A DNA stretch of 64,000 nt from Bacteroidales bacterium (lineage in GTDB: Bacteria > Bacteroidota > Bacteroidia > Bacteroidales > GCA-2711565): contig OY775914.1 of the NCBI GenBank assembly GCA_963675215.1, forward strand, positions 3,339,181 through 3,403,180. Direction: 5' to 3'. Numbering within the stretch: the stretch's first letter is position 1; the number at the start of each line of letters is the position of its first letter. Below are positions 5,906 to 55,747 of the stretch, piece after piece. Under the pieces are notes generated by a model. The model saw only the letters and a list, made by a program, of their open reading frames with translations, was not told the origin of the DNA and did not search any database. Position numbers and translations under genes: made by a program.

Positions 5906-6010
5906 GTGATTATTGGTTATTAGTTATTAGTTATTAGTTATTGGTGATCAGTTATTAGTTGTCAGTTAAAGATTCTTTATTCTAATTTTTAACTTCTGTT
6001 TTCTTACTAT
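5906..6010. repeat. heptad-periodic tract (TTAGTTA-type) starting at the base after the copA stop
   Basis: gtgatta|ttggtta|ttagtta|ttagtta|ttagtta|ttggtga|tcagtta|ttagttg|tcagtta, then the ..TTC-ending heptads aagattc|tttattc|taatttt|taacttc|tgttttc. Confidence 0.8.
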
Positions 6011-6200: not shown

Positions 6201-6395
6201 ATCCATATCTTTAATCCTGAAATTCTTCCCGTCCGGATAGCAGCTGTTGAATAAGAATTCCAAATTCCCCGTAATTTAAAAATTGTTGTCGTTTTACTTT
6301 TAATCGACAAAATATATGATAATATAGAACCTGTGCAACACATCCCAACCTGTCCACCTATAGAGGATTTGGATGTTATTGGCTAAGAAACGTAA
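6201..6395 (+). repeat. conserved intergenic core, copy X (paralogous to 50711..50875)
   Basis: By-eye alignment: 'TATCTTTAATCCTGAAATTCTTCC..TGTTGAATAAGAATTCCAAATTCCCCGTAATTTA..TTAATCGACAAAATATATGATAAT' versus 'TATCTTTATTCCTGAAATTCTTCC..TGTTGATTAGAATTTCAAACTCCCCATTTATTGA..TTAATCGAAAAAATATATAATTGC'. Weaker similarity continues to a GTTA(T/C) site. Confidence 0.7.
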
Positions 6396-6444
6396 ACATA
6401 TTATTAGCCAGCAATAATTAATAACCTAATTTAAAGGACATCAA

Positions 6445-7696: not shown

Positions 7697-7842
7697 ACTT
7701 TCACTAACACCTGTAAATAAAATATGGCAAATCCGTACTCGGCTGAGAAGTAGGCAATTCGTTAACACCTTCCTTTCCGTCGGAAAGAAAAATACTCCGA
7801 AATATTGCAACGTTCCATAGCCTAAAGCTTAGTGCGTTAAGC
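7697..7842 (+). repeat. full-length structured intergenic element A (attC-like imperfect dyad)
   Basis: Starts CACTAACACC..ATATGGCA and ends CCATAG..TTAGTGCGTTAAGC. Nested pairings: cactaa/ttagtg, tatgg/ccata, gcaat/attgc, and a central ctttcc-gtc-ggaaag hairpin. The right end GTTAAGC fits GTTRRRY. Confidence 0.6.
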
Positions 7843-12063: not shown

Positions 12064-12092
12064 TTTATTTGGTTTTAGATTATTATTTATAG

Positions 12093-12134
12093 TTACTGGT
12101 TTCTTGATACTTGATACTTGTTTCTGGTTACTTG
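12093..12134. repeat. heptad-periodic tract
   Basis: ttactgg|tttcttg|atacttg|atacttg|tttctgg|ttacttg, between two minus-strand genes. Confidence 0.7.
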
Positions 12135-12175
12135 TTTAAAAATATTCTCATTCATAACTTATAATTCATTACTTA

Positions 12176-14450: not shown

Positions 14451-14618
14451 TGAATCTTGTATCTATTTTCTAGTTACTGGTTCCTAGTTACTGGTTCCTA
14501 GTTACTGGTTTCTGGTTCCAATTTTCTGGATTCTAAATTCTGTCTTCTGGTTTCTCTATTCTATTTTTCTGTCTTGTATCTAGTATCTATTATCTTGTAT
14601 CTTAAATCTGTTTTCTTT
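14451..14618. repeat. long heptad-periodic tract (about 24 heptads, including 14-nt units TAGTTACTGGTTCC)
   Basis: tgaatct|tgtatct|attttct|agttact|ggttcct|agttact|ggttcct|agttact|ggtttct|ggttcca|attttct|ggattct|aaattct|gtcttct|ggtttct|ctattct..., then tatctag|tatctat|tatcttg|tatctta. Confidence 0.85.
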
Positions 14619-42485: not shown

Positions 42486-43097
42486 ATGCAAAATTTAAAA
42501 ACAGTTTTTCAAAAGGCACCTGCTAATTCAGGGTCATCAGCAGATGGTATTAGCGTAACATCATTCGGACAGGGACAATGTTCTGGTGTAACATATACAG
42601 TATCTCCACATTCTGTAATTGATGTTGATTTTACCATTAACATGCTTTGTGTAACACCTGAGAATGTTGACACATTGGACAAATTAATCAGGAGTATGCT
42701 AAGTGCTTCAAAGCAGCATGAATATGATCAGTTAACCAAGAAAAGTTCAAGTGGCGGAAGAGGTTTCTTCTTGTTTTTCTCAGGTGGTGGAAGTCGTTCA
42801 TCTGTGAGCCAAACTACTCATACCATGGATTCGTTTGGACTTACCAGAGAGCAACAATCAAAAATTATTGATTCAATGCTGGCATTGGTTGCAAAAACAA
42901 ACAAATTTAGTTTTAAGGGCAAAATTTCAAATCAACAATACGATTATGCCGTTTCAGGAAATCTGTTTGCGATTGTGATGGATGCAACAATTCAAAAAGG
43001 TGAAACCCATACACAAGTCAGATTTTTAGCACCTAATGTACACATGAACAGTACAGATGGCGCTGCTAGTTTGCCAGTTGAAGGCAAGCTTTATTAA
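42486..43097 (+). CDS. orphan protein with a central Gly/Ser/Phe-rich segment
   Basis: 203-aa ORF with no signal peptide; 'KKSSSGGRGFFLFFSGGGSRSSVSQTT' lies mid-protein. Flanked by the conserved box upstream and a strong terminator downstream. Confidence 0.65.
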   Translation: MQNLKTVFQKAPANSGSSADGISVTSFGQGQCSGVTYTVSPHSVIDVDFTINMLCVTPENVDTLDKLIRSMLSASKQHEYDQLTKKSSSGGRGFFLFFSGGGSRSSVSQTTHTMDSFGLTREQQSKIIDSMLALVAKTNKFSFKGKISNQQYDYAVSGNLFAIVMDATIQKGETHTQVRFLAPNVHMNSTDGAASLPVEGKLY

Positions 43098-43121
43098 TCC
43101 TATATTTTAGTCTAGTGTATT

Positions 43122-43170
43122 AAAATAATACCTCCGGGTTATGATTAACCAGGAGGTATTATTTTAAAAC
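43122..43170 (+). terminator. rho-independent terminator
   Basis: aaaataatacctcc / ggaggtattatttt 14-bp perfect stem, with an inner ggtt/aacc extension, ending in a T-run. Confidence 0.8.
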
Positions 43171-43248
43171 TATAAATATCTTATCGTACCTGCCTGTTTT
43201 TGATACTGATAATATAATTTGTTTTGGAATTTGTAGGAACATATCAGA

Positions 43249-44256
43249 ATGAGATATGATAAAATCTTAAAAATGTATACAATAGGTACAAACGAAAGCC
43301 GCAATTACTCAGTGAAAAAGCTACAGAATCTAAAACAAAAACACAATTCCGGCATAGGATATATTTGTGCGCTTTTGTTATTCACTTTTGTATTTCATTT
43401 AAACACGAATGGACAATGCATTAGAACAAGAAACACTCGCAACTGGGATTCAAAATTCACGATTGGTATAGAACGCGGTATTGCATCACAAATAATAAGA
43501 GGCAACTCAAGTCTGAATTTCACAAGTATCCCGACTAACTCAGAAGCCGCTATAAATTTAAGTGAAACAAGATTATTTGACCAGCATCTTAGCTCATCTG
43601 CACTCATTGGAATTGAGGCTTTGTATAAAATTACGCCTGCAATTTCAATAGGCTTAGCCTATCAATTCCGAAACCAGAATACCTATAATTCAAAGATGAT
43701 TTTTAATCAGGATAAGTTAATCCTATCAAATGATTTAGCGGTGTCTTCATTCGGAGAATTTAAACTTAATTCGGATATCAGAAATACATCCATTTCTGTG
43801 GTTACCCATTTAAATATCTTCAATTTCAGCCTTACAAACGAACATGCCGGTTCATTCGAGATTGGCCTTGGAGGCGGAATATCTTTCTTTAAAATAAAAT
43901 CCTTTGTATCACAAGCTTTCTTAAGAATGGACATTCAAAATGATTATGTTGAGGGCAGATACATATTAGGTCCCGGAAATATTTCACCTGAAACCAAAAG
44001 ATCAGCATCCTGCACTTGGCAATTGATCACCGCTTTAAATTTAAAGTCGACTTATTCGCCTGATATTAAGATAGGATTCAGAATAAGCAGTTTAGGACAT
44101 TTTATTATTTTGAAAAGAAATAAAGAAATGCATCAATTGTTCAAACTCACCAGTGCGAATACAGGCTCACAAGATCAGGAATTATCTCTATTATCAACAA
44201 ATAGCAGCAGAGAAATTATCCTCAATGAGATTTTTATTAGAATTTATTTATGGTAG
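43249..44256 (+). CDS. putative outer-membrane beta-barrel protein
   Basis: Hydrophobic signal-like segment 'IGYICALLLFTFVFHLNTNGQ', alternating-residue strands, and a C-terminal aromatic end 'IFIRIYLW'. The start (43249 or 43273) is uncertain. Confidence 0.55.
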   Translation: MRYDKILKMYTIGTNESRNYSVKKLQNLKQKHNSGIGYICALLLFTFVFHLNTNGQCIRTRNTRNWDSKFTIGIERGIASQIIRGNSSLNFTSIPTNSEAAINLSETRLFDQHLSSSALIGIEALYKITPAISIGLAYQFRNQNTYNSKMIFNQDKLILSNDLAVSSFGEFKLNSDIRNTSISVVTHLNIFNFSLTNEHAGSFEIGLGGGISFFKIKSFVSQAFLRMDIQNDYVEGRYILGPGNISPETKRSASCTWQLITALNLKSTYSPDIKIGFRISSLGHFIILKRNKEMHQLFKLTSANTGSQDQELSLLSTNSSREIILNEIFIRIYLW

Positions 44257-45255: not shown

Positions 45256-45711
45256 ATGGCTATTTTAAATTTTGTTGGACGCGTTAACATTGCAGTCCGT
45301 ATCGTAACAGAGAAGTACCCTAACGCAAAATTGTATGAAGCAGAAGGCGTATCTTCAACAGGATTGACTACTGATCCTCTAAAAATTGATAAACTAAAGG
45401 TCGTTTTTCAAAACAGTAATAACACAACTGTTATTATTAAATCAACTGGTTGGGGAGAATTTGGAGAACCAGAATTAATTCCTTACCCATGGTGTGAAGA
45501 TGTTGTTATTCAATGGCCTGTAAAAATGGATTTGGCAGAAGCCAATCAACTAAAAGAGGCTGCTGGTTACAAAGCCTCCTATGGTGCAGTAACTCTTCGT
45601 AATCCTTTAGGACCAAAAATTGGCAATCCTTATTACATTTTTGGCAGCAATCCAAGAGAACCGTATATTTTTGTGGACACGATAACCAAAGATGTACATG
45701 CTGGAAGTTAA
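45256..45711 (+). CDS. orphan small soluble protein
   Basis: 151-aa ORF with no signal peptide and no motif I can name. Confidence 0.6.
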   Translation: MAILNFVGRVNIAVRIVTEKYPNAKLYEAEGVSSTGLTTDPLKIDKLKVVFQNSNNTTVIIKSTGWGEFGEPELIPYPWCEDVVIQWPVKMDLAEANQLKEAAGYKASYGAVTLRNPLGPKIGNPYYIFGSNPREPYIFVDTITKDVHAGS

Positions 45712-46184
45712 TCTGAGTATGGTAAAACGGGCAGTAATTCTACAATTAAAGAATTACTATCCGTTACTTATCTTAATCAAGTACTTGAGGTATATCAACT
45801 TTTATATTGTGCCATCCAAACAGGTGTTTTTTTCTCAAAAACAAATTAAAATCAGATCAGACTTGTATGATGCAGATTAACATCCGATTGCGCTATAAAT
45901 TTATAAACAATCGCTATGACATTTAAATTCCACAATTTCAATCTAGTCAGAGGAAAGCAAATCCTGAACTGAATCAAAAAAATCAATTTTTAACCTGAAA
46001 ACTAAAAAAATACAACAGGCCATTTAAAGCCAGGAATTTAAACTCCATTTCGGGAATTAACAAAAAAAGACAAAATACTTTTTTAAAACCGCAATGAAGA
46101 CACGTTAGTGAAATAAAGAAAATTTATTTTTAATCTAATCTCTCCTGTTCACGCGAGTTATTGCTGATCAATAGCTCACATCAT

Positions 46185-46226
46185 ACTGCTCATTCAGTTC
46201 TCAATACTTGTATGAGCAGTTTTTAT
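46185..46226 (+). terminator. orphan rho-independent terminator in a 730-bp ORF-free region
   Basis: actgctcat / atgagcagt 9-bp perfect stem followed by TTTTT. No credible upstream ORF. Confidence 0.55.
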
Positions 46227-46438
46227 AACTTAAAAACTAGAATTAATAAACACCCTTCAAAAAATCAGAATCCAGCAAACCTGAATTTAAAGAAACAATA
46301 TTTTTACATATTTAAATCATCTCTTATTTTTTTATACTTTTATCTATCTATTTGGATATATTAAATCTATCTACTAACCAAACTATTACAACACTTATTA
46401 TTCATTTTGTTATTTAATTTAACCAATCTATATCAATT

Positions 46439-49400
46439 ATGAAAAAAATAGCCCTTTACCTAAGTTTATTTTTCATACTTCTGTCTTCGACAGGATTTTC
46501 ACAAAGCAATGAGAAAGATGAACTTCTATCTGAAAAAACTTTTAAAGATTTAAAATTTCGAAATATCGGACCGGCTTTCATGTCGGGAAGAATTGCCGAT
46601 ATAGCTATTCATCCTAATGACGACAACACCTGGTACGTTGCCGTTGGATCAGGTGGTGTTTGGAAAACCGTAAATGCAGGAATCACCTGGGAACCCATTT
46701 TCGATAATGAAACTTCATACTCAATCGGCTGTGTAAGTATTGATTCAAAAAATCCAAACAACATTTGGGTTGGAACCGGCGAAAATGTGGGTGGTCGTCA
46801 TGTTGGCTTTGGCGATGGCATTTACAAAAGTGTAGATGCCGGAAAGACATGGAAAAACATGGGTTTAAAACTCTCTGAGCATATCTCAAAAATCATTGTT
46901 CATCCTACGAATTCCGATATTGTATGGGTTGCAGCCCAAGGTCCTTTGTGGAGTAAAGGAGGAGAACGGGGTTTATATAAAACTGTTGATGGTGGAAAAA
47001 CATGGAAAAAGACTTTAGGTGATGATACCTGGACAGGTGTAACTGATCTGGTTATTGATCCCCGAAATCCGGATGTACTTTTTGCTGCAACATGGCAACG
47101 ACATCGATCCGTCGCTTCTTATGTCGGTGGTGGACCCGGATCTGGAATTCATAAAAGTACTGATGGAGGCGACACTTGGCTAAAACTTAGCAGTGGATTA
47201 CCAGAAGAAAACATGGCTAAAATAGGGCTTGCGATCTCACCACAACAACCCGATATTGTTTATGCCGCAATTGAATTAATTCGTGTCAAAGGTGGAATTT
47301 ATCGCAGCAGCAACTCAGGAATGACTTGGGAAAAGCGTTCAAATGTTGTCTCTGGTGCCACGGGACCACATTATTACCAAGAACTTTATGCATCACCTCA
47401 TCAATTCGAACGATTATATTTGGTTGACAACACCATGTTGATTTCGGAAGATGGAGGAAAAAATTTCTCTCGCATGAACAACACCCATAAACATGGTGAT
47501 GAACATGCAGTGGCATTTAAAAAAAACGACCCGGATTATGTGATGGTTGGTTCTGATGGTGGTTTATACGAAAGCTTTGATCATACTAAGAATTGGCGAT
47601 TTATGGAAAATCTTCCGATCACTCAATTTTATAAAGTCGCGCTGGATGATGCGGAACCATTTTATAATATTTATGGAGGAACTCAGGATAATAGCACTCA
47701 AGGCGGACCATCGCGAACAGATAATTTTCAAGGCATTCAAAACTCCGACTGGAGCGTGGTATTAAACTGGGATGGACATCAACCTGCAACAGAGCCCGGC
47801 AATCCAAATATCATGTACGCTGAACGTCAGGAAGGGGCGCTATCACGAATTGACCTAAGCACTGGTGAAGTAATCGATATTCAACCAGCACCAAATGCCG
47901 ATGAAGATTTTGAGCGATTTAATTGGGATGCACCGATTTTGGTGAGCCCGCACTCCCCTACCCGAATTTATTTCGCATCTCAAAGGGTTTGGAAATCCGA
48001 AAACCGTGGTGACGAATGGAAAGCCATTTCTGGTGATTTAACTAAAAATGAATTGCGAATTGCTACACCGCTAATGGATGGAACCCAAAGCTGGGATGCG
48101 GCCTGGGATTTCAATGCCATGTCAAATTATAATACCATTACTTCTTTGGCCGAATCACCAAAACAAGAAGGTTTAATTTATGCCGGAACCGACGATGGAA
48201 CCATTCAAGTGACTGAAGATGGAGGAAACAATTGGCGAAAAGTTGATTTCGGAAAAATTCCGGGACTTCCTAAAACAGCATTTGTAAATGACATTAAAGC
48301 TGATTTATTTGATGCCGGAACCGTTTATGTTTCATTTGATAATCATAAATATGGCGACTTCTCACCCTACTTATACAAAAGTACTGATAAAGGTAAAAGC
48401 TGGAAATCCATCAGTTCAAATATCCCAGATAGAACTTTAATCTGGCGATTGGTTCAGGATCATGTAAAACCTGAATTGATGTTTTGTGCCACTGAGTTCG
48501 GTGTTTATTTTACCATCAATGCAGGCGAAAAATGGATTAAATTAAGTGGAGGGATTCCTACCATTTCCTTCAGAGATATAGCCATTCAAAAACGAGAAAA
48601 TGATTTAGTTGCGGCTTCCTTTGGGCGTGGATTTTTTGTTTTAGACGACTACAGTGTACTTCGTGAAATTACAGAGGAAAAACTTGAAGCAGAAGCCAGT
48701 TTATTCTCAACTCGAAAAGCATGGTGGTATGTTCCCCGTTCTCACCTGAGTTTTGATGAAGAGAAAGGCAGCCAGGGCGCTGATCATTATGTAGCACCTA
48801 ACCCCGATTTTGGCGCCATTTTCACTTACTTCTTAAAAGATGATTTGAAAACCAAAGAAAAGATCAGACAGGAAAAAGAAAAAAACTTGAGCAAACAATC
48901 CAAAGCAATTTCCTTTCCCGGATGGGATGAGCTGCTTGATGAAGTAAGGGAAGAAATGCCCGGCATTTATATTGTTGTCAGCGATGCAACTGGCAAAGTA
49001 ATTAGAAGGGTAAAAGGACCTTCAACAAAAGGATTTCACCGTGTGAGTTGGGATTTACGTTACCCGGCTACCAGTGCAATTCGTTTGGACGAAACTAGTT
49101 CAAATCAAACATCAGGTCTTTTGGCTGCCCCCGGAACCTATACTGCCGAAATGGTAAAATACGCAAACGGAAAAATCAGCAAGCTCTCCGAAGCCATTTC
49201 TTTTGAGGTGGTGCCTTTAAAGTCGGGTGCATTGAAGGGTGCTTCGATGGAGGAAGTTGATGCTTTCTGGCGTGCATACGAAAAAGTATCTCGCGAAGTT
49301 TCTGGAATGGAAATAGAACTGGCAAATGCTTTAAATAAAATTAAAGCAATGCAAAAAGCTCTATTGAGCTCATCTTCAAAACCAGGAACTTTGGAAACAC

Positions 49401-49696
49401 AATTATTTGAAGTTCATCAAACACTGCTAAATTTGGATATGGAACTATACGGCCATCAGGCTAAACGACAGGTTGGCGAAAAAACCAAACCCAATATTGG
49501 TCAGCGCATGTTCAGACTTGAGTTGGGAATTAGTCGTTCAACCTACGGCCCCACTCCTACCCACAGAAAACAATTAAAAATTGTAAACGATCAGTTGTCT
49601 GCAATCATCACTAAATTGGAAAAAGCAATGCAGGAAATGGATGTTTTGGGTAAAACCCTGAAAGATCATGGTGCTCCCTTGGTTGAAGGAAGATAA
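46439..49696 (+). CDS. secreted BNR/Asp-box (sortilin/VPS10-like) repeat protein
   Basis: Signal peptide; repeated Asp-boxes 'SVDAGKTW', 'TVDGGKTW', 'STDGGDTW', 'SSNSGMTW', 'TEDGGNNW', 'STDKGKSW'. Confidence 0.85.
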   Translation: MKKIALYLSLFFILLSSTGFSQSNEKDELLSEKTFKDLKFRNIGPAFMSGRIADIAIHPNDDNTWYVAVGSGGVWKTVNAGITWEPIFDNETSYSIGCVSIDSKNPNNIWVGTGENVGGRHVGFGDGIYKSVDAGKTWKNMGLKLSEHISKIIVHPTNSDIVWVAAQGPLWSKGGERGLYKTVDGGKTWKKTLGDDTWTGVTDLVIDPRNPDVLFAATWQRHRSVASYVGGGPGSGIHKSTDGGDTWLKLSSGLPEENMAKIGLAISPQQPDIVYAAIELIRVKGGIYRSSNSGMTWEKRSNVVSGATGPHYYQELYASPHQFERLYLVDNTMLISEDGGKNFSRMNNTHKHGDEHAVAFKKNDPDYVMVGSDGGLYESFDHTKNWRFMENLPITQFYKVALDDAEPFYNIYGGTQDNSTQGGPSRTDNFQGIQNSDWSVVLNWDGHQPATEPGNPNIMYAERQEGALSRIDLSTGEVIDIQPAPNADEDFERFNWDAPILVSPHSPTRIYFASQRVWKSENRGDEWKAISGDLTKNELRIATPLMDGTQSWDAAWDFNAMSNYNTITSLAESPKQEGLIYAGTDDGTIQVTEDGGNNWRKVDFGKIPGLPKTAFVNDIKADLFDAGTVYVSFDNHKYGDFSPYLYKSTDKGKSWKSISSNIPDRTLIWRLVQDHVKPELMFCATEFGVYFTINAGEKWIKLSGGIPTISFRDIAIQKRENDLVAASFGRGFFVLDDYSVLREITEEKLEAEASLFSTRKAWWYVPRSHLSFDEEKGSQGADHYVAPNPDFGAIFTYFLKDDLKTKEKIRQEKEKNLSKQSKAISFPGWDELLDEVREEMPGIYIVVSDATGKVIRRVKGPSTKGFHRVSWDLRYPATSAIRLDETSSNQTSGLLAAPGTYTAEMVKYANGKISKLSEAISFEVVPLKSGALKGASMEEVDAFWRAYEKVSREVSGMEIELANALNKIKAMQKALLSSSSKPGTLETQLFEVHQTLLNLDMELYGHQAKRQVGEKTKPNIGQRMFRLELGISRSTYGPTPTHRKQLKIVNDQLSAIITKLEKAMQEMDVLGKTLKDHGAPLVEGR

Positions 49697-49816: not shown

Positions 49817-50539
49817 ATGCCTAAAAAAATCAAAACATTCTTAAACTGGAGTTCGGGTAAGGATGCCGCCATGGCTCTTTATTATATGCAACAAAGCCCG
49901 GATTTTCAAGTCGATCATTTGCTTATTTCCGTCAATGGACATTTAGATCGGGTGTCAATGCATGGCGTTCGCACTTCGCTCTTAAAAATGCAGGTTGAGG
50001 CCATTGGCCTGCCTTATTCTATAATTAAATTACCGGAAGAACCCAGCATGGATACCTATGAAGCTATCATGTCGGTGCAAGTAAAAAAGCTACAAAGTGA
50101 AGGATTCACCTGTGCTGCTTTTGGAGATATTTTTCTGGAAGATCTTCGTGAATATCGAGAAAAAAAACTGAAAGAAATTAATATGCAAGCGGCTTTCCCT
50201 TTATGGAACAAGAACACCAAAACACTTTTAAACGAGTTTTTAGATCATGGTTTTAAAGCCATTGTGGTTTGCATTAATTCCAATTTATTGGATGCTTCTT
50301 TTGCCGGTCGGGTCATCGATAAAGATTTTATAAAAGATTTGCCTGGCAACGTTGACCCTTGCGGAGAAAATGGTGAATTTCACACCTTTTGTTTTGATGG
50401 CCCTATTTTTAAACAGCCCATTGATTTTACAATTGGCGAAAAAATATTTAAAGAATACAAAACACCTAAAGGAGACAATAAAGAAAATGACAGCAACATG
50501 GGATTTTGTTTTTGCGACCTGATTCCGAAAATCAGTTGA
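49817..50539 (+). CDS. Dph6-related / MJ0570-type ATP pyrophosphatase (PP-loop) domain protein
   Basis: 'WSSGKDAAMAL' PP-loop variant and 'GENGEFHTF' motif. Confidence 0.75.
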   Translation: MPKKIKTFLNWSSGKDAAMALYYMQQSPDFQVDHLLISVNGHLDRVSMHGVRTSLLKMQVEAIGLPYSIIKLPEEPSMDTYEAIMSVQVKKLQSEGFTCAAFGDIFLEDLREYREKKLKEINMQAAFPLWNKNTKTLLNEFLDHGFKAIVVCINSNLLDASFAGRVIDKDFIKDLPGNVDPCGENGEFHTFCFDGPIFKQPIDFTIGEKIFKEYKTPKGDNKENDSNMGFCFCDLIPKIS

Positions 50540-50665
50540 CTGGTTGTTGGTTGTTGGTGATTAGTGACTGGTTCTGAATTTAGTAATCAGATTCTAACAA
50601 TCTATTTTTCTTTTTTCTTTTTTCTTTTTTCTACATTCTGCATTCTAACTTCTCATTTTCAAATT
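50540..50665. repeat. heptad-periodic tract (about 18 heptads) starting at the base after the stop codon
   Basis: ctggttg|ttggttg|ttggtga|ttagtga|ctggttc|tgaattt|agtaatc|agattct|aacaatc|tattttt|ctttttt|ctttttt|ctttttt|ctacatt|ctgcatt|ctaactt|ctcattt|tcaaatt. Confidence 0.85.
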
Positions 50666-50677
50666 AGCACATCATCA

Positions 50678-50705
50678 AACTTGCCTGTTGCAAGCAGGTT
50701 TTCAA
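50678..50705 (+). terminator. terminator-like hairpin
   Basis: aaacttgcctg-ttg-caagcaggttt imperfect stem followed by TTC. Confidence 0.45.
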
Positions 50706-50710
50706 ATTTA

Positions 50711-50875
50711 TTCCTTATCTTTATTCCTGAAATTCTTCCTGCCCTTGGGAAGTAATTGTTGATTAGAATTTCAAACTCCCCATTTATTGAATTTTTAGCT
50801 CGGTTTTAATTAATCGAAAAAATATATAATTGCACAAAAGCTAGCTAATACATGTCTATATAGGTGAATATAGTT
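50711..50875 (+). repeat. conserved intergenic core, copy Y (paralogous to 6201..6395)
   Basis: See copy X. Confidence 0.7.
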
Positions 50876-50953
50876 ACTAAAGATGCCCATATATAGTCGT
50901 TAGGTTTAATGCAAAAAAAGGGAACAAAAATTGACTACGTGTACTAATTTTTA

Positions 50954-50961
50954 TATTTTTG
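50954..50961 (+). promoter_or_regulatory. Bacteroidota-type -7 box candidate (TATTTTTG = TAnnTTTG) in front of the Fic gene
   Basis: Matches the TAnnTTTG consensus, 18 nt before the ATG at 50979. Confidence 0.35.
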
Positions 50962-50978
50962 GTACAAATATTGAAAAC

Positions 50979-52061
50979 ATGGGACAAAATGCACCATATC
51001 GGATTCTAGAAAAACTACCTCCCCCAAGAGAAAAAGTAGAAACAATCAAGATATTAAGAAATGTGAGCAAGGCAACTGCTGCATTGGCCGAATTAAAAGG
51101 TATTGCCAAAACAATCCCTAATCAGGCAATGTTGATTAATGCGATTGTTCTTCAAGAAGCAAAAGGCAGTTCAGAAATAGAGAACATCATCACGACACAA
51201 GATGAGCTATACAAAGCTTTGACTGTAAACAGATCAATCATTTCAGCAGGAACAAAAGAAGTAGTAAACTATAGAAAATCAATTTTTCAGGGGTTTGACT
51301 TGATTAAGAAACAAGGACTTTTAAAAGTAAACGATATTGTAAACATCCAACAAGAGTTAGTTGGAAACAATTCTGGTATAAGAAGTATGCCTGGAACCGT
51401 ACTTAAAAATGACACAACAGGAGAGATTGTTTACACTCCTCCTCAGGACAAACAAGAAATATTAGATTTACTTTCAAATTTCATTGATTACTACAACCAA
51501 AACAATCAGGAGTTATCACCTTTGATAAATCTTGCAATTTTGCACCATCAATTTGAGAGCATTCACCCATTTTATGACGGGAATGGAAGAACTGGTAGAA
51601 TATTGAACATTTTATACCTGATATTAAATGACTTGATAGATATACCAATATTATATCTCAGTTCGTATATCATAGAAAACAAGGCAGGTTATTACCGTTT
51701 ATTAAACCAAACAAATCGTCTGAATGAATGGGAAGAATGGATTTTATTCATGCTCAAGGCTGTTGAAGTCACATCCTTACAAACAATCGAAAAGATAAAT
51801 ACCATTAGACAATTATTAAATCAAACTATAGAAAAAGCACAGATTGATGCTCCTAAAATATATAAGAAAGAGTTGGTTGAATTGCTATTTGAACAACCTT
51901 ATTCAAAAATAGAATTCGTAGTAAACCTCTTAAGGGTCGAAAGAAAAGCAGCATCAAGATACCTAAAGGAGTTAGAGAGAATTGGAATCTTGGAATCTCA
52001 AATAGTTGGTCGAGAAACATTATACATTAATAAAGAACTGATTGAAATATTAAAAAAATAA
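50979..52061 (+). CDS. Fic-family protein (AMPylase-type) with an N-terminal inhibitory helix motif
   Basis: Fic motif 'HPFYDGNGRTGR'; upstream 'GSSEIEN' fits the (S/T)xxxE(G/N) auto-inhibition motif; C-terminal winged-helix-like tail. The ATG at 50979 is preferred to the TTG at 50931. Confidence 0.85.
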   Translation: MGQNAPYRILEKLPPPREKVETIKILRNVSKATAALAELKGIAKTIPNQAMLINAIVLQEAKGSSEIENIITTQDELYKALTVNRSIISAGTKEVVNYRKSIFQGFDLIKKQGLLKVNDIVNIQQELVGNNSGIRSMPGTVLKNDTTGEIVYTPPQDKQEILDLLSNFIDYYNQNNQELSPLINLAILHHQFESIHPFYDGNGRTGRILNILYLILNDLIDIPILYLSSYIIENKAGYYRLLNQTNRLNEWEEWILFMLKAVEVTSLQTIEKINTIRQLLNQTIEKAQIDAPKIYKKELVELLFEQPYSKIEFVVNLLRVERKAASRYLKELERIGILESQIVGRETLYINKELIEILKK

Positions 52062-52068
52062 TGCACTA

Positions 52069-52175
52069 AGCCCAACAAAAGCTATGGTTCATGGCGCTCA
52101 GACAGGTTACGAAATCTTAGGGTTTTCCTGCCTACGGCAGGCAGGTGCCACGTAACCATCGCAATACAGTTAGCG
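52069..52175 (+). repeat. full-length structured intergenic element D (attC-like imperfect dyad)
   Basis: GCCCAACAAAAGCTATGGTTCATGGCG....CCATCGCAATACAGTTAGCG. Nested pairings: aac/gtt, atggtt/aaccat, tggc/gcca, and a central cctgcc-tac-ggcagg hairpin. Starts 8 nt after the Fic stop. Confidence 0.6.
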
Positions 52176-52238
52176 GCAATGTAAAATTTAAACTCCTAGA
52201 AAAAGGAATATTTGTATTAAAAACCTAAACTCAAGATC

Positions 52239-52661
52239 ATGAAAACTTTAACCAAATTATTTTTGTCAGTTTTTATAATTAGTCTTACTTCTTGTAACCA
52301 TTTTAAAGATAAACCTGAATGTATTAACAAAGATAGCTTCTTTGACAATAATGATCCAATGACAGAAACATATCAGGAAAAAGTTAAAGAAGTTTTAAAA
52401 ATTACAACCCCTAATGATTTTAGATATTTTTTCGTAACATTTACTGGCGACAATAATGAATATCTAATGGTGAACATGAGAAACAATGAATATTGTTTTG
52501 ACGCAAAAATATTGGTAGAAAATTGGGATAAATTAGCAGGCATGAGAGAGAAAAAGGGGAGATCGTATCCCGAAGAATTACATAATTTAAAATGGAAATT
52601 AGAAAAATCTGGAGGAAGCGAAAATATAGTCTATCTAGACATGAACAAAATTATTGATTAA
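52239..52661 (+). CDS. small lipoprotein, unknown function
   Basis: Signal peptide plus lipobox 'ISLTSCNH'; 140 aa. Confidence 0.65.
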   Translation: MKTLTKLFLSVFIISLTSCNHFKDKPECINKDSFFDNNDPMTETYQEKVKEVLKITTPNDFRYFFVTFTGDNNEYLMVNMRNNEYCFDAKILVENWDKLAGMREKKGRSYPEELHNLKWKLEKSGGSENIVYLDMNKIID

Positions 52662-52663
52662 CA

Positions 52664-52720
52664 CTGCTGCTAACAAAGGCTCATAAAACATGGCTAATTC
52701 TTACTCAGCAGAAACGCATT
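52664..52720 (+). repeat. left-half copy B of the structured element
   Basis: 'ctgctgCTAACAAAGGCTCATAAAACATGGCTAATTCTTACTcagcagAAACGCAT'. ctgctg/cagcag can close a stem. Starts 3 nt after the stop codon. Confidence 0.55.
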
Positions 52721-52747
52721 AATTATAAATATATAAAAACGAAAATC

Positions 52748-53323
52748 ATGAATAGAATTATTATTTTACTCATCTTTTCTCACTTTTTTTCAAATGGCAT
52801 ATCTGCGCAAGACATTCTTGATAAATACACTTCAACCAAATGGGGGTTTACCATTTCTTTTCCTTTCGAGAAAACAAAGAAGGGTAGCCGTTTCGAGGAT
52901 GATAAAACTTTTCAGTTTCACATCAGTCAGTATTACAGAGGGCAATATGATGTAGTCGATATTTCAGTGATAAAATATTCCGATACGCTTGAACTGGTAA
53001 ACAATTACAATTCAATGATTACAGCACTTGAAACATCAAAACTAAGCGATGGATACACGCTGATCGACAGTCTTTGTTCAGAAGTTAAAAGTGCTCATTA
53101 TAACGGGGTTCAAAAAGCTTTTTATAATGAATTCGCTGGTCTGAACAAAGATTATATCATCGTTCGCTTCTTCAAAACAGACCGCTATTTATATAGTCTT
53201 ACGCTTACAGTTCCAAACCTGAAAAGATATAATGAAAATTTGAAAATATTAGCGTCGTTTACCATTCTTACCCAGGATAATCAAACTGGCGCTCCAAAAA
53301 AAGAAAGAAAACGACCCAAATAG
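52748..53323 (+). CDS. secreted protein, unknown function
   Basis: Signal peptide MNRIIILLIFSHFFSNGISAQ; 191 aa; basic tail KKERKRPK. Confidence 0.65.
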   Translation: MNRIIILLIFSHFFSNGISAQDILDKYTSTKWGFTISFPFEKTKKGSRFEDDKTFQFHISQYYRGQYDVVDISVIKYSDTLELVNNYNSMITALETSKLSDGYTLIDSLCSEVKSAHYNGVQKAFYNEFAGLNKDYIIVRFFKTDRYLYSLTLTVPNLKRYNENLKILASFTILTQDNQTGAPKKERKRPK

Positions 53324-53327
53324 TAAG

Positions 53328-53831
53328 ATGATGAAAAACATAGGTTATTACTTCTTTATATCTGCAATTACAATTTTGTTATTATCAAGTTGTAACAAAG
53401 AATCCAAAATAATTATTGATAAAAAAAGTGAAATAGAGGGAATTTGGTACACTGAGGGTTATTTGGAAGAATTTAATGAAATTTCCAGATTAGAATATAA
53501 TTTCAAGAAACAAGGAGGACTTGATATTCTAAGAGTCGAGCTTGATTTTAATTCAAGAGAAATATTAGGTTACAGATATCGGACGCTAGGGAAATATAGA
53601 TTAGAAGAAAATCATTTAATATTATACAGTTTGAGAAGCTTCGGGAATGATGATACCATAGCACATTATACGAATCTTCACAATTTGCAATTTGTCCCCA
53701 ACAGTGATATGCATACATATAATTACAGGTATGAGATAATTGATGGGGAAAATAAATTAATTATATACTTTACGAGTGGAAGAACAAGTAAAAGTAGTCT
53801 GGGTAAAATTATCTTAACAAAGCAGCAATAG
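53328..53831 (+). CDS. small lipoprotein, unknown function
   Basis: Signal peptide plus lipobox 'LLLSSCNK'; 167 aa. Confidence 0.65.
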   Translation: MMKNIGYYFFISAITILLLSSCNKESKIIIDKKSEIEGIWYTEGYLEEFNEISRLEYNFKKQGGLDILRVELDFNSREILGYRYRTLGKYRLEENHLILYSLRSFGNDDTIAHYTNLHNLQFVPNSDMHTYNYRYEIIDGENKLIIYFTSGRTSKSSLGKIILTKQQ

Positions 53832-53860
53832 AATTGTTTGTGCCAAAGTTGACTAATCTT

Positions 53861-53922
53861 AATAAGGGCTTTAAACAATGGCGCCTGCATGCAGTGCAGC
53901 TAAACCATCACTACCAACTGAA
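53861..53922 (+). repeat. short degenerate copy F of the structured element
   Basis: 'AATAAGGGCTTTAAACAATGGCGC-CTGCATGCAG-TGCAGCTAAACCATCACTACCAACTG'. The ATGGC..CCAT frame surrounds a perfect 10-bp palindrome; both ends are mutated relative to D. Confidence 0.45.
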
Positions 53923-53952
53923 ATTAAATGGTGCAATAAAAATTTGAATAAC

Positions 53953-54126
53953 ATGAAAAAACAATCTTATTTAGCATTAATCCTTTTAATATTGGGACTC
54001 ATATTTTCATCAAGTTTTGGATTTAAATTTAATTTAAGTGATGGATTTACCATGCTTGTTACTGGATTCACCAGCCTTTTCAATTTCTTGATTTTGCAGT
54101 TATCGGCTCAAATGAAGTTCATTTGA
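53953..54126 (+). CDS. tiny membrane protein (57 aa), or the 5' part of a frameshifted membrane-protein gene
   Basis: MKKQSYLALILLILGLIFSS... The ORF-track start at 53878 lies inside repeat F, so the internal ATG is preferred. Confidence 0.4.
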   Translation: MKKQSYLALILLILGLIFSSSFGFKFNLSDGFTMLVTGFTSLFNFLILQLSAQMKFI

Positions 54127-54401
54127 CATCACATCTTATTGGTTACATTTTTTATTTTTTTGCAGGAATAGTAGCACTTAAAAATGTAAAAACTGGTGAC
54201 AAAAAAACCAAAACTGCGACAAGTATCTTTTTCTTATTAATTGCAATTGTTTTTATAAGTGAACTTTACTCATACCATCAAGACTTTAATAACATATTTA
54301 TTGGCCGGCACTTCAGAGTTGGGTTTACTGTTTTTCTTATTGGAGTTTTCATCTTAAAACAATTAAAAAATAAATCCGATCAAGCAATCACAAAACATTA
54401 A
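54123..54401 (+). CDS. small membrane protein (TTG start), or the 3' part of the same frameshifted gene
   Basis: 92 aa, 3 TM; overlaps the preceding stop in TTGA. Confidence 0.4.
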   Translation: MTSHLIGYIFYFFAGIVALKNVKTGDKKTKTATSIFFLLIAIVFISELYSYHQDFNNIFIGRHFRVGFTVFLIGVFILKQLKNKSDQAITKH

Positions 54402-54438
54402 ACTTTCAAAACTTAGTCGCTAACAAAAACCTAATGAA

Positions 54439-54897
54439 ATGAAAAATCAAAAATATAGCCTTTTCATAGTGTTCTTCATAGTTTTTCCTTTTCTTTCTCT
54501 TTCAGCTCAAGACACTTTTAAAAAAGTTACGGAAAGGATGATTGATAAATCTAAAATTGAACTCGCTACAAAAATTGCAAGTTCGTTTTTTGAAAACTTA
54601 AAACAAGGTAAATTTTACGACTTTAGCGAAGTTGCTATAAAAACTTTTAGTGATGGAATGGGTGCTGAGGTTCAAAAACAAACCTATGAGCAATTAAAAA
54701 TTCAATTTGGCGAATTCAAAAAACTTGACTATGCGGAAACATGGGCAGCAAATGAAGATGATGGTTTACAAGTTATTCGCTTTAAAGGTACTTTTGAAAA
54801 TTATACAGCGCCTTTAGAAATAAGAGTCGTGATAAACGATTCAAATAAATTAACAGGATTGTGGTTTAAACTTTGGAAGGACAACTTAAACAACTAG
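54439..54897 (+). CDS. secreted DUF3887-like protein
   Basis: Signal peptide; 'QTYEQLKIQFGEFKKL..' and 'PLEIRVVINDSNKLTGLWF' resemble DUF3887. Confidence 0.55.
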   Translation: MKNQKYSLFIVFFIVFPFLSLSAQDTFKKVTERMIDKSKIELATKIASSFFENLKQGKFYDFSEVAIKTFSDGMGAEVQKQTYEQLKIQFGEFKKLDYAETWAANEDDGLQVIRFKGTFENYTAPLEIRVVINDSNKLTGLWFKLWKDNLNN

Positions 54898-54901
54898 TAA
54901 A

Positions 54902-55294
54902 ATGACAAAATCAAGCATTTCAAATTATTTAAACAAGTTTGACTATAAATTTATTGAGCACGAAAAATCATTTATTGTTGACCTTGATTTTTCATTGCAA
55001 ATTATCATCGAACTGATGGATAATGGAAAAATAAAAATAACCGACCAATTAAAAGGTTTAAATTTCCTAACATGGCCTTTTCCAATGAGTATTAAGTCAT
55101 CAATGATCTACAATACAATTGGTTTAATCGTATTTACACTACTTATTCTTGTAATAGAAAAATCATACAGTCAATTTTTTCTCACTATAATTTATATGTG
55201 TGCTATCTTTGCGATTTTATTTTGGATGATTTACTATTTTGTTAAAGCTGAGAATTTTAAAAAACAAATTATTGATCTGATTACTCATCAATAA
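54902..55294 (+). CDS. small membrane protein, unknown function
   Basis: 130 aa with a soluble N-half and 2 C-terminal TM helices. Confidence 0.55.
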   Translation: MTKSSISNYLNKFDYKFIEHEKSFIVDLDFSLQIIIELMDNGKIKITDQLKGLNFLTWPFPMSIKSSMIYNTIGLIVFTLLILVIEKSYSQFFLTIIYMCAIFAILFWMIYYFVKAENFKKQIIDLITHQ

Positions 55295-55306
55295 AAATTA
55301 AACTAA

Positions 55307-55747
55307 ATGAAAACTTCCGAAAACACTGTTGTTGTTGAACAAACTTTTAAAACATCACCTGCGAAGGTGTGGAGTGCCATTACCAATGTGAAAGAAATGA
55401 CACTTTGGTTTTTCGATAATATTCCTTCCTTCAAAGCTGAGGTTGGATTTAAAACACAATTTTTGATTCAGGTAAGAAAAAGAAAATTTACCCACCTTTG
55501 GGAAATAACTGAGGTAATTCCCAATCAAAAAATAACTTATAACTGGAAGTATAAAGAATACCCTGGAGATGCCTACGTGACTTTTGAACTATTTGAAGAA
55601 GAGAAGCAAGTCAGACTCAGAGTCACCATGCTCGTGACTGAAGATTTTCCGGACGATGTTCCTGAATTTACCTGGGATAGCTGCATTGAGGGCTGGAGGT
55701 ATTTTATAGTTGAGCGACTTAAAATTTATTTGCACCGAAGGCGGTAA
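55307..55747 (+). CDS. SRPBCC/AHSA1-like domain protein
   Basis: 'VVVEQTFKTSPAKVWSAITNVKEMTLWF' and the length (146 aa) fit the Aha1/START-like superfamily. Confidence 0.7.
   Translation: MKTSENTVVVEQTFKTSPAKVWSAITNVKEMTLWFFDNIPSFKAEVGFKTQFLIQVRKRKFTHLWEITEVIPNQKITYNWKYKEYPGDAYVTFELFEEEKQVRLRVTMLVTEDFPDDVPEFTWDSCIEGWRYFIVERLKIYLHRRR

Follow-up and report, generated by a model that had tools for sequence, protein, structure and literature searches.

The stretch of DNA considered here (the window: 64,000 nucleotides (nt), C1:3339181-3403180 of the 4.05-Mb single-contig genome of a Bacteroidales bacterium, labelled G000) contains an intergenic element, referred to as module Y, that lies directly downstream of a gene of the Diphthami_syn_2 family (49817..50539) and upstream of a gene encoding a Fic protein. 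An initial annotation had described module Y as a composite of heptad repeats, a terminator-like hairpin and a conserved core, and had proposed that it might be an attI-like site, or array-entry region, for the genes that follow. Module Y occupies the left end of an island of ~4.75 kb (50540-~55290) that comprises the heptads, the core (hereafter also called a pad), the Fic gene and six or seven small genes. Relatives of the organism in the public collection are uncultured Bacteroidales metagenome-assembled genomes. The variability among relatives that the annotation had suggested looking for was found in the closest of them, G011, in which the genes flanking the island are 82-88% identical at the amino-acid level to those of G000 and from which the whole of 50540-~55290 is missing. 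In G011, the orthologue of the Diphthami_syn_2 gene (82% identity) is followed, after a gap of 107 nt, by the AHSA1 orthologue and then by YaaA, cupin, SDR and tricorn protease genes. The island is strain-specific in this comparison, which involves one relative. (Note that synteny at the Y locus is not kept in more distant members of the genus, and that no other contig was found to encode the exact protein specified by the gene upstream of Y.) A scan of the window for tRNA and tmRNA genes identified none; thus the island is not tRNA-linked.

Using iterated nhmmer searches, 19 copies of the core were identified in the genome. All 19 are co-oriented with the next gene and lie 11-342 nt (mostly 50-340) upstream of its ATG. 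The genes in question are diverse: they encode Fic, type IIG restriction-modification and helicase-nuclease proteins, lipoproteins, outer-membrane proteins and, in one case, a tyrosine recombinase. Copies also occur in five further genomes (four to five species) of the genus, and 18 genomes belonging to the order's other families have none. When 23 full-length copies are aligned, the conserved unit in Y extends over ~50699-50905. The conservation recognized by the annotation is therefore real, and far beyond chance, and the interval assigned to it (50711-50875) was too short at both ends. The heptamer GTTAGGT (50899-50905; fits GTTRRRY), which had been listed as a separate feature further downstream, is present and falls inside the core, within the last block of the consensus. 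In order, the consensus blocks are a TAnnTTTA box, a hairpin P1 (GAAATTCTT/AAGAATTTC), TGTTGAT, CTCCCC, a hairpin P2 (TCGATT/AATCGA), AAATATAAA, a segment of ~70 nt that occurs in two variants, and CATATATACTAGTTAGC.

The genome contains one full platform, located on the minus strand at 2.6287-2.6273 Mb, in which the two halves of the core are separated by the open reading frame (ORF) of a 383-amino-acid (aa) tyrosine recombinase (2627432..2628583). This gene is 0.76 Mb from Y and is positioned directly upstream of, and on the same strand as, a large array of cassettes (the main array). On its 5' side, a heptad tract is followed by TTACCTTTA, P1 and CTCCCC, which together make up the 5' half of the core, and then by the ATG of the recombinase gene. 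The gene ends GAAATATAA (including the stop codon) and is followed by AATACAAGAAAACATGTACAATACACGCGTATTTGGATGTTATTGTGCAAGAAACGTGTACATATATACTAG|TTACCGTTT, the 3' half of the core, and then by the first cassette. The segment after the stop codon is ~85 nt in length, is conserved, and ends CATATATACTAG|TTA (CTAG|TTA), at which point the first cassette begins. Thus, an attI-type site is found beside the recombinase gene at the start of the array. This layout is conserved in the related genomes G004 and G007, where the genes for orthologous recombinases (79% and 76% identity, respectively) have the same two flanks, the flank in G007 being without P1.

Because the core of Y aligns to both of the non-coding flanks of the recombinase gene, it corresponds to the platform minus the ~1.15-kb recombinase ORF. 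Moreover, the joint in Y (P2 ... GATGAAATATAA) retains the last codons of the recombinase and its stop codon. The core family and an orthologue of the recombinase also co-occur: both are present in G000, G004, G007 and G011, and neither is present in the near-complete genomes G003, G009 and G010.

The features of the core in Y, all of which are on the plus strand, can be read against this parent arrangement. A -7-like promoter box, TATCTTTA (TAnnTTTA; 50716..50723), matches the Bacteroidota TAnnTTTG at 7 of 8 positions, has a mean column conservation of 0.92 in the 23 copies, and has a counterpart at the corresponding position before the recombinase gene of both G000 and G004. The invariant TAYMTTTA form differs by one base from the Bacteroidota -7 consensus; upstream of genes in this genome, TAnnTTTG shows a sense bias of 2.7-fold and TAnnTTTA one of 1.26-fold. 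We infer that the box is a working promoter. Next comes hairpin P1 (GAAATTCTT ... TAGAATTTC; 50729..50772) in what would be the leader, with arm conservation of 0.96 and 0.84. Over 33 copies, 93.9% of the cells in P1 are paired, there are three double compensatory changes, and T-G wobbles are confined to the sense strand. A CTCCCC box (50776..50781) ends the 5' half and, in the full platform, sits ~35 nt before the recombinase ATG. Hairpin P2 (TCGGTT/AATCGA) together with GAAAAAATATATAA (50800..50829; conservation 0.80-0.89) forms the joint at which the recombinase ORF is missing, and the right side of this joint agrees with the recombinase gene in its final codons and stop codon (..GATGATTTTGAAATATAA). 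The 5' half is most likely the promoter and leader of the recombinase gene, and with the ORF gone it would read into the cassettes.

The remaining part of the core, from 50819 to 50905, is the attI-like half. It ends in the crossover box CATATATAGTCG|TTAGGT, in which exchange is predicted to occur between G50899 and T50900; the GTTAGGT heptamer that had been put forward as an attI-like feature is part of this box. Across the 23 copies, column conservation is 0.78 in the L/R box and 0.53 just past the crossover (the conserved boxes of the core range from 0.78 to 0.96), and the box in Y differs from the consensus at 2 of 15 positions. With a flank that aligns to the segment ending CTAG|TTA at the first cassette of the main array, Y lends support to the proposal that it is an attI-like or array-entry site, and it lies, as an attI would, at the 5' boundary of an array with an R box (GTTAGGT). 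It is not adjacent to an integrase gene: none is found near Y, as the annotation had also noted, and the ORF is missing at the P2 joint.

Two cassettes can be recognized downstream, both on the plus strand. Cassette 1 (50900..52169) carries a SoFic-type Fic gene (ATG 50979..52061) whose product contains the Pfam domains Fic_N, Fic and SoFic-like_C and which is preceded by its own TAnnTTTG box (TATTTTTG; 50955-50962); the box and the gene had both been correctly recognized by the annotation. The cassette ends in an attC-type site (52070..52175; nhmmer E = 1.7e-20) that runs from an R'' of GCCCAAC to an R' of GTTAGCG. At the variable bases after GTT, the start of the cassette (GTTAGGTTTA) matches the reverse complement of the attC R'' (TAAGCCCAAC) at 5 of 7 positions. 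Cassette 2 (52170..52735) carries a gene for a 140-aa predicted lipoprotein (52239..52661) followed, from 52668, by a truncated attC; of the 7 variable bases at its start (GTTAGCGGCA), 6 agree with the reverse complement of TGCTGCTAAC. Having two attC sites and no integrase nearby, the locus can also be assigned to those attC clusters that have no integrase (CALINs), an assignment made marginal by the truncation of the second attC. The rest of the island (52736..55294), likewise on the plus strand, contains six or seven small genes for which the Pfam matches are limited to DUF3887 and weak membrane-protein matches.

To define the attC family, the spacer after Fic (52055-52240) was used as the seed for nhmmer. 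The family comprises 105 copies of an imperfect palindrome of ~150 nt (TAAC...GTTA); copies start ..TAACAA(A/C)AGCT..CATGGCGC and end ..GCGCCACG..CATAGCCAAACCGTTA. Approximately 80 of them make up the main array, which extends over ~80 kb (genome 2,547,020-2,627,091) with every copy on the minus strand and with spacings of ~380-2000 nt. In the main array, 31 of 70 cassettes show full complementarity (7/7) between the seven bases that follow GTT at their start and the R'' of their own attC, and a further 12 of 70 score 6/7, compared with a mean of 2.9/7 both for random pairs and for the two ends of the same site. Such complementarity is the expected product of a crossover between G and TT, and it identifies the units of the main array as integron-type cassettes with attC ends and a G|TT crossover. 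At the full platform, the R'' of the attC of the first cassette (AAACGGTAAC) and the start of the attI junction agree at 7 of 7 positions. In classical integrons, attC is folded and attI is double-stranded. Here, folding as single-stranded DNA is seen for the attC that follows Fic (z -2.7 and -2.0) and not for the attI-like half of Y (z +0.95 and +1.85). (Note that the main array contains many copies of one cassette of ~380 nt, visible as runs of attC sites at intervals of about that length, with identical flanks that end ..AAATGGTAAC and start GTTACCATTT.)

A profile of the 3' half of the core detects 14 attI-like halves in the genome, 10 of which are followed by attC-like sites within 6 kb; conversely, the main array aside, an attI-like half or a core copy stands upstream, on the same strand, of ~10-11 of the ~14 attC clusters. 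At pads without a recombinase gene, the junction matches the R'' of the first attC at 7/7 (c3517257), 6/7 (c375290 and c3450083), 5/7 (Y), 4/7, 3/7, 3/7 and 2/7. Apparently, some ~14-19 pads distributed over the genome would be served by a single recombinase.

The pad at 1.31 Mb (genome 1314600-1315300, locus L076), which has no recombinase gene and heads seven attC sites, bears on use in trans. Its cassettes are 100, 100, 99.8, ~95 and 99.8% identical to cassettes of the main array (at offsets of 63.1, 31.9, 28.1, 37.6 and 0.1 kb), the order of the cassettes differs from that in the main array, and the boundaries of the matches fall at cassette junctions. In particular, the first 100% match has its start at the G of CTAG|TTA (genome 1314724). 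The presence of seven shuffled, near-identical cassettes at this location argues that cassettes have recently moved, one by one, between the main array and a pad that has no recombinase gene, and recombinase-less pads thus appear to be used in trans. Y shows no sign of recent traffic of this kind. The joint of the 1.31-Mb pad consists of TATATTTG, ATTTTCTCCCC, GAAAAACATAAATCATCCGAAGGATGGATTTGAGATATAA and the attI-like half, and because it differs from the joint of the Y type, the recombinase ORF must have been lost at least twice independently. (This pad has a perfect TAnnTTTG box (TATATTTG) and neither P1 nor P2, and more of the 3' end of the recombinase gene remains in it.)

Module X (6203..6400, plus strand), the second module described in the annotation, is a sister recombinase-less platform in the same window. 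Its 3' half is the variant with an extra hairpin, its junction is TATTAGCC, and it is followed by a PD40 cassette and then by an attC at 7697-7842. Within and between genomes, all core copies are 70-79% identical to one another, which indicates that the family is old and was not recently amplified; the pads of G000 and G011 are, by sequence identity, all about equally distant. G011 has ten pads of its own, mostly at breaks in synteny with this genome. One pair (c3450083 and L026) has the upstream flank in common, with an extra GH20-like gene in G000. In three pads on the minus strand (genome 1718370, 1719426 and 1733882), a shared alternative 5' part (..TCGAAGTATCTTTTTCTTACATTTGAGTTTTACTCCCC) replaces the -7 box together with P1, and P2 and the attI-like half are kept; one of the three precedes a gene for a 1052-aa type IIG restriction-modification protein.

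The annotation had made its proposal conditional on there being an IntI-like recombinase elsewhere in the genome. One IntI/XerA-like recombinase is indeed present, at the head of an array of ~80 cassettes, and it is not a canonical IntI. Its best NCBIfam match is to XerA_Arch, 'site-specific tyrosine recombinase/integron integrase' (192.7 bits; cut-off 220). The integron integrase model TIGR02249 matches it in two pieces (profile 2-181 and 239-314; 178.5 bits, cut-off 265), and a break at this very place is also seen in the alignment to VchIntIA (PDB 2a3v), indicating that the ~35-residue IntI-specific insertion near patch III is absent. It is on account of this absence that the recombinase cannot be called a canonical IntI. 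The closest solved structure is that of Pyrococcus abyssi XerA (4a8e; E = 3e-37), and a six-frame search of the genome revealed no better or other IntI candidate. Integron integrases are regarded as needing the insertion in order to read attC sites in their folded form. It has also been used to define integron integrases (PMC4889954), and Smyshlyaev et al. describe it as 'not fully conserved' within an integron-like subgroup (PMC8138268). At its N-terminus, the recombinase carries an extension of ~105 aa without a Pfam match, and this extension may stand in for the missing insertion. (Orthologues from G004, G007 and G011 have conserved the extension, as have some homologues of 43% identity that belong to other classes of Bacteroidota.) Homologues with 43-54% identity are found in 14 of 301 sampled Bacteroidota genomes (~5%). 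Of four examined, two adjoin TAAC...GTTA repeat arrays of their own: that of G042, with at least 19 sites in 18 kb, and that of G186, with four. The recombinases of G042 (locus L073) and G186 (L071) are 52-54% identical to the one studied here, and the attC-like repeats beside them read ..CTAACGTTCCCGCGCTACAAGCAG ... CTTGTAGCGTGTGTTA.

Taken together, these findings make it probable that what module Y represents is the platform of an integron-type system for gene capture, in a copy that has no recombinase gene. The homology of Y to both flanks of the recombinase gene, the position of the crossover, the structure of the cassettes, the strain-specificity of the island and the recent exchange at a sister pad are each apparent at the level of sequence; that Y itself is still usable, and that the recombinase acts on the attI- and attC-type sites, are inferences. 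In the mechanism that we envisage, the platform has lost its ~1.15-kb recombinase ORF, leaving the leader fused to the last codons of the gene and to the attI-type site. The recombinase, supplied in trans, would then join a circular cassette between G50899 and T50900 of Y, and Y would probably also provide a promoter that reads outward into the captured genes.

Several observations weigh against this interpretation. The match at the Y junction is only 5/7, a value that random pairs reach or exceed ~19% of the time. The second attC of Y, being truncated, matches only the first ~54 positions of the profile, and a search with the attC profile found no matches in the distal 2.6 kb of the island. 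No close copies of the Y cassettes are found elsewhere. When compared to G011, the boundaries of the island do not form a clean site-specific junction, and ~85 nt of the G011 spacer, including the TAAATTTG box before AHSA1, have been replaced in this genome. Covariation in P1 is weak, since the arms are nearly invariant. Finally, the recombinase is without the IntI-specific insertion, and a role for it at these sites is suggested by adjacency, by co-occurrence and by the presence of homologues beside similar arrays.

Some of the same observations would also be expected if Y were a dead relic of a platform, unused by the recombinase, in which the boxes are kept only because the leader serves as the promoter for the Fic island. 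Y does look old, because its cassettes are without close copies and its second attC is truncated, and a relic would likewise account for the lack of attC sites in the rest of the island, for a junction complementarity of only 5/7 and for the age of a family whose members are 70-79% identical to one another. Conservation of the L/R box at 0.78, with a drop only past the crossover, is however not what selection for a promoter alone would be expected to produce. Moreover, Y has kept its own box at all but 2 of 15 positions, and a sister pad that equally lacks a recombinase gene has seen very recent cassette traffic. We therefore regard a dead relic as possible, if somewhat unlikely.

It is less likely still, and in our view improbable, that the core is a structured 5' leader or a small RNA that acts in cis before accessory genes and plays no part in recombination. 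Such an element would explain why 19 of 19 copies are co-oriented with the downstream gene at 11-342 nt from its start, why there is a -7-like box just upstream, and why the hairpins P1 and P2 are conserved, their G-U wobbles being limited to the sense strand. However, the 3' end of the core coincides with a recombination junction, and in the full platform the two halves of the core are split by the 1.15-kb recombinase gene, which argues that they do not form one RNA domain. There is also no match to an Rfam family in the window at the gathering score; in permissive mode, the best sub-threshold hit is to Bacteroides-1, on the minus strand, at 22.4 bits versus the 43 required. The idea of a large structured RNA was dropped: RNAalifold applied to the 23 copies supports P1 only, and counting of pairs reveals high pairing with little covariation. 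Note that a regulatory leader for the recombinase gene is compatible with Y being a platform copy and does not replace that explanation. As for a self-transposing mobile promoter akin to a miniature inverted-repeat transposable element (MITE), found upstream of accessory genes by chance, the dispersed, multi-copy nature of the family and its differing positions between species are what one would predict. The core is, however, devoid of both terminal inverted repeats and target-site duplications, and among its copies, all of which show identities of 70-79%, there are none of the near-identical ones expected of recent transposition. The family shows a strict linkage with attC arrays and with the recombinase lineage, and its structure is accounted for by loss of the recombinase ORF (at least two times, with different joints). 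A co-varying transposase was not seen, nor were empty and filled sites whose difference is exactly the core and a target duplication. We consider this explanation very remote.

The annotation had treated the heptads, the hairpin and the core as one composite module, in the same order as in module X. The core is indeed common to X and Y; the heptads and the hairpin are not parts of the platform. The heptad-periodic tract of Y (50540..50665) begins directly after the Diphthami_syn_2 stop codon and has a lag-7 identity of 0.60, compared with 0.35 +/- 0.04 in shuffles (z = 7.0). The 7-nt periodicity is therefore real, and the description of the tract as 18 in-phase heptads was generous, because the periodicity is confined to two in-phase blocks (50540-50581 and 50603-50665) and the 21 nt that separate them are not periodic. 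Intergenic tandem repeats of this type form a class found throughout the genome: there are 57 intergenic arrays at lag 7, versus 2, 23 and 6 at lags 6, 8 and 9. They are present in co-directional, divergent and convergent gaps, and only 5 of the 57 lie within 400 nt upstream of a core. On the basis of this distribution, we rejected the heptads as a part of the module. The heptad tract is also absent from G011 at the Y locus. Lag-7 arrays are somewhat commoner than expected in co-directional (minus-strand) and convergent gaps, i.e. near the 3' ends of genes; those in the window are at 5889-5971, 12080-12138, 14451-14618 and 50540-50665, and the units vary genome-wide (TAGACnT, CTTGATA, TTAGTTA, AATGATT and others). 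The lag-7 arrays belong to a class already known from some Bacteroidetes and Cyanobacteria, the intergenic direct repeats of heptamers (TAACTGA-type; MacGregor 2015, PMC4679880). The tract at 50540-50665 resembles the described repeats in being an intergenic 7-nt tandem array, one that abuts a stop codon, and differs from them in its units, which are CTGGTTG, CTTTTTT and CTnCATT.

The hairpin that had been described as terminator-like (50678..50705) does exist, as a small GC-rich palindrome on the plus strand at 50680..50698 (CTTGCCTG-TTGC-AAGCAGG). It is weak (dG -7.8 kcal/mol, z -1.45), and a terminator scan makes no call there, leading us to reject it as an intrinsic terminator. It behaves as an optional insert, being an insertion in only 3 of the 23 aligned copies, and module X has no hairpin of this type. 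Palindromes of the form CCTGCC..GGCAGG number ~25-30 in the genome and are mostly optional inserts inside attC-like sites. Thus, both the heptads and the small upstream hairpin are unrelated neighbours of the platform. Tiny GC-rich palindromes of this type (CCTGCC(T)GCGGCAGGCAGG and variants) are present or absent within otherwise near-identical attC sites and platform copies, a pattern that looks as if the palindrome inserts by itself. Examples occur in the window at 50680-50698 and 52127-52145, elsewhere in the genome at, e.g., 28084, 888614 and 2893160, and inside ~20 attC sites; three of them are spaced ~360 nt apart at 3.92 Mb (3919939-3920658).

Between the heptads and the core, a motif on the plus strand (CAAATTAGCACATCATCAAA; 50660..50679) is found in about half of the recombinase-less copies in the 23-copy alignment and is absent upstream of the recombinase gene in full platforms. 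We entertained the idea that this upstream TTAGCACAT motif might be the R' end of a 'super-cassette' carrying the whole pad; the idea was abandoned, as there is no matching R'' downstream and the left boundary of Y is 125 nt further upstream. At the opposite end of the island (window 55287-55310, compared with locus L019/L020 of G011), AHSA1's own box, present in G011, is replaced by the end of the island, and the AHSA1, YaaA, cupin and SDR genes may accordingly be transcribed from within the island. Two more blocks of the window are missing from the syntenic region of G011: 42486-44256, which contains two orphan genes, and 45256-49696, which contains a gene for a 151-aa protein and one for a 1085-aa BNR/sortilin-repeat protein. 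Hence this stretch of the chromosome holds several strain-specific insertions.

Integrons are defined by one integrase with a special insertion and by one attI per element. When compared to the attI/Pc/PintI region of integrons (e.g. attI1 of class 1), Y is similar in its location at the 5' edge of an array, in its GTT-type R box, in G|TT joining, in having a site that is not a folded hairpin, and in its linkage to a promoter-like element reading into the cassettes. In integrons, attI sits between an intI gene and cassettes that diverge from it, whereas the parent site here follows the recombinase stop codon; Y and at least 12 other copies are without a recombinase gene, so that there are many such sites in the genome instead of one per integron. 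The attI-like site of Y has no sequence similarity to attI1-3. With respect to the protein, Xer recombinases are known for resolving chromosome dimers at dif. The recombinase of the platform is like XerA/Xer proteins in that they provide its best sequence match (4a8e) and in the length of the domain between catalytic patches II and III. It is unlike them in heading a cassette array, in having an extra ~105-aa N-terminus, and in scoring almost as well on integron-integrase profiles.

The Vibrio cholerae superintegron, an example of the sedentary chromosomal integrons, provides a further point of comparison, since the main array likewise has ~80 cassettes over 80 kb, homogeneous attC sites of ~150 nt, repeated cassettes and cargo of the defence/toxin type (Fic); the host here is a member of the Bacteroidota, and the recombinase differs in type and in orientation. 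CALINs, for their part, are usually regarded as broken pieces. Like CALINs (Cury et al. 2016, PMC4889954; Neron et al. 2022, PMC9024848), Y is a short attC cluster located far from the recombinase in a genome that has a large array elsewhere. Unlike CALINs, which are defined by attC only, the small arrays in this genome keep a conserved promoter-plus-attI platform without the recombinase ORF, and one of them has exchanged cassettes with the main array recently. The 'inverted' integrons of the Treponema denticola type (PMC3607928) share with the system described here a recombinase that is transcribed toward attI and a long chromosomal array. Unlike the recombinase studied here, Treponema IntI has the IntI-specific domain, and the paper on Treponema (PMC3607928) reports no dispersed integrase-less attI platforms. 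Only one complete integron was reported in Bacteroidetes with IntegronFinder 2.0 (PMC9024848).

The system is thus integron-like in its working, its cassettes being of the attC type, its crossover falling at G|TT and its primary site being of the attI type, and it is not an integron in the strict sense, because its recombinase is without the IntI insertion. What is new relative to the integron literature with which we compared it is the conserved family of recombinase-less platform copies. The exact crossover signature of integrons is found here beside a recombinase that is without the insertion, and the docking site lies behind the gene, not in front of it. We propose, as an idea with roughly even odds of being correct, that the organism has a distributed integron, in which one recombinase without the IntI domain serves a large home array and a dozen or more conserved recombinase-less pads, Y among them, so that captured genes could be parked and expressed at many loci. 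If so, integron-type recombination of folded attC sites would not need the IntI insertion. Tools that require the IntI-specific domain would presumably label such arrays as CALINs or miss them. Confirmation of these ideas would widen the definition of integron-like gene capture, would explain how some clusters of the CALIN type arise and stay active, and would provide a tractable system in which to determine the protein features that are needed to recombine folded attC DNA.

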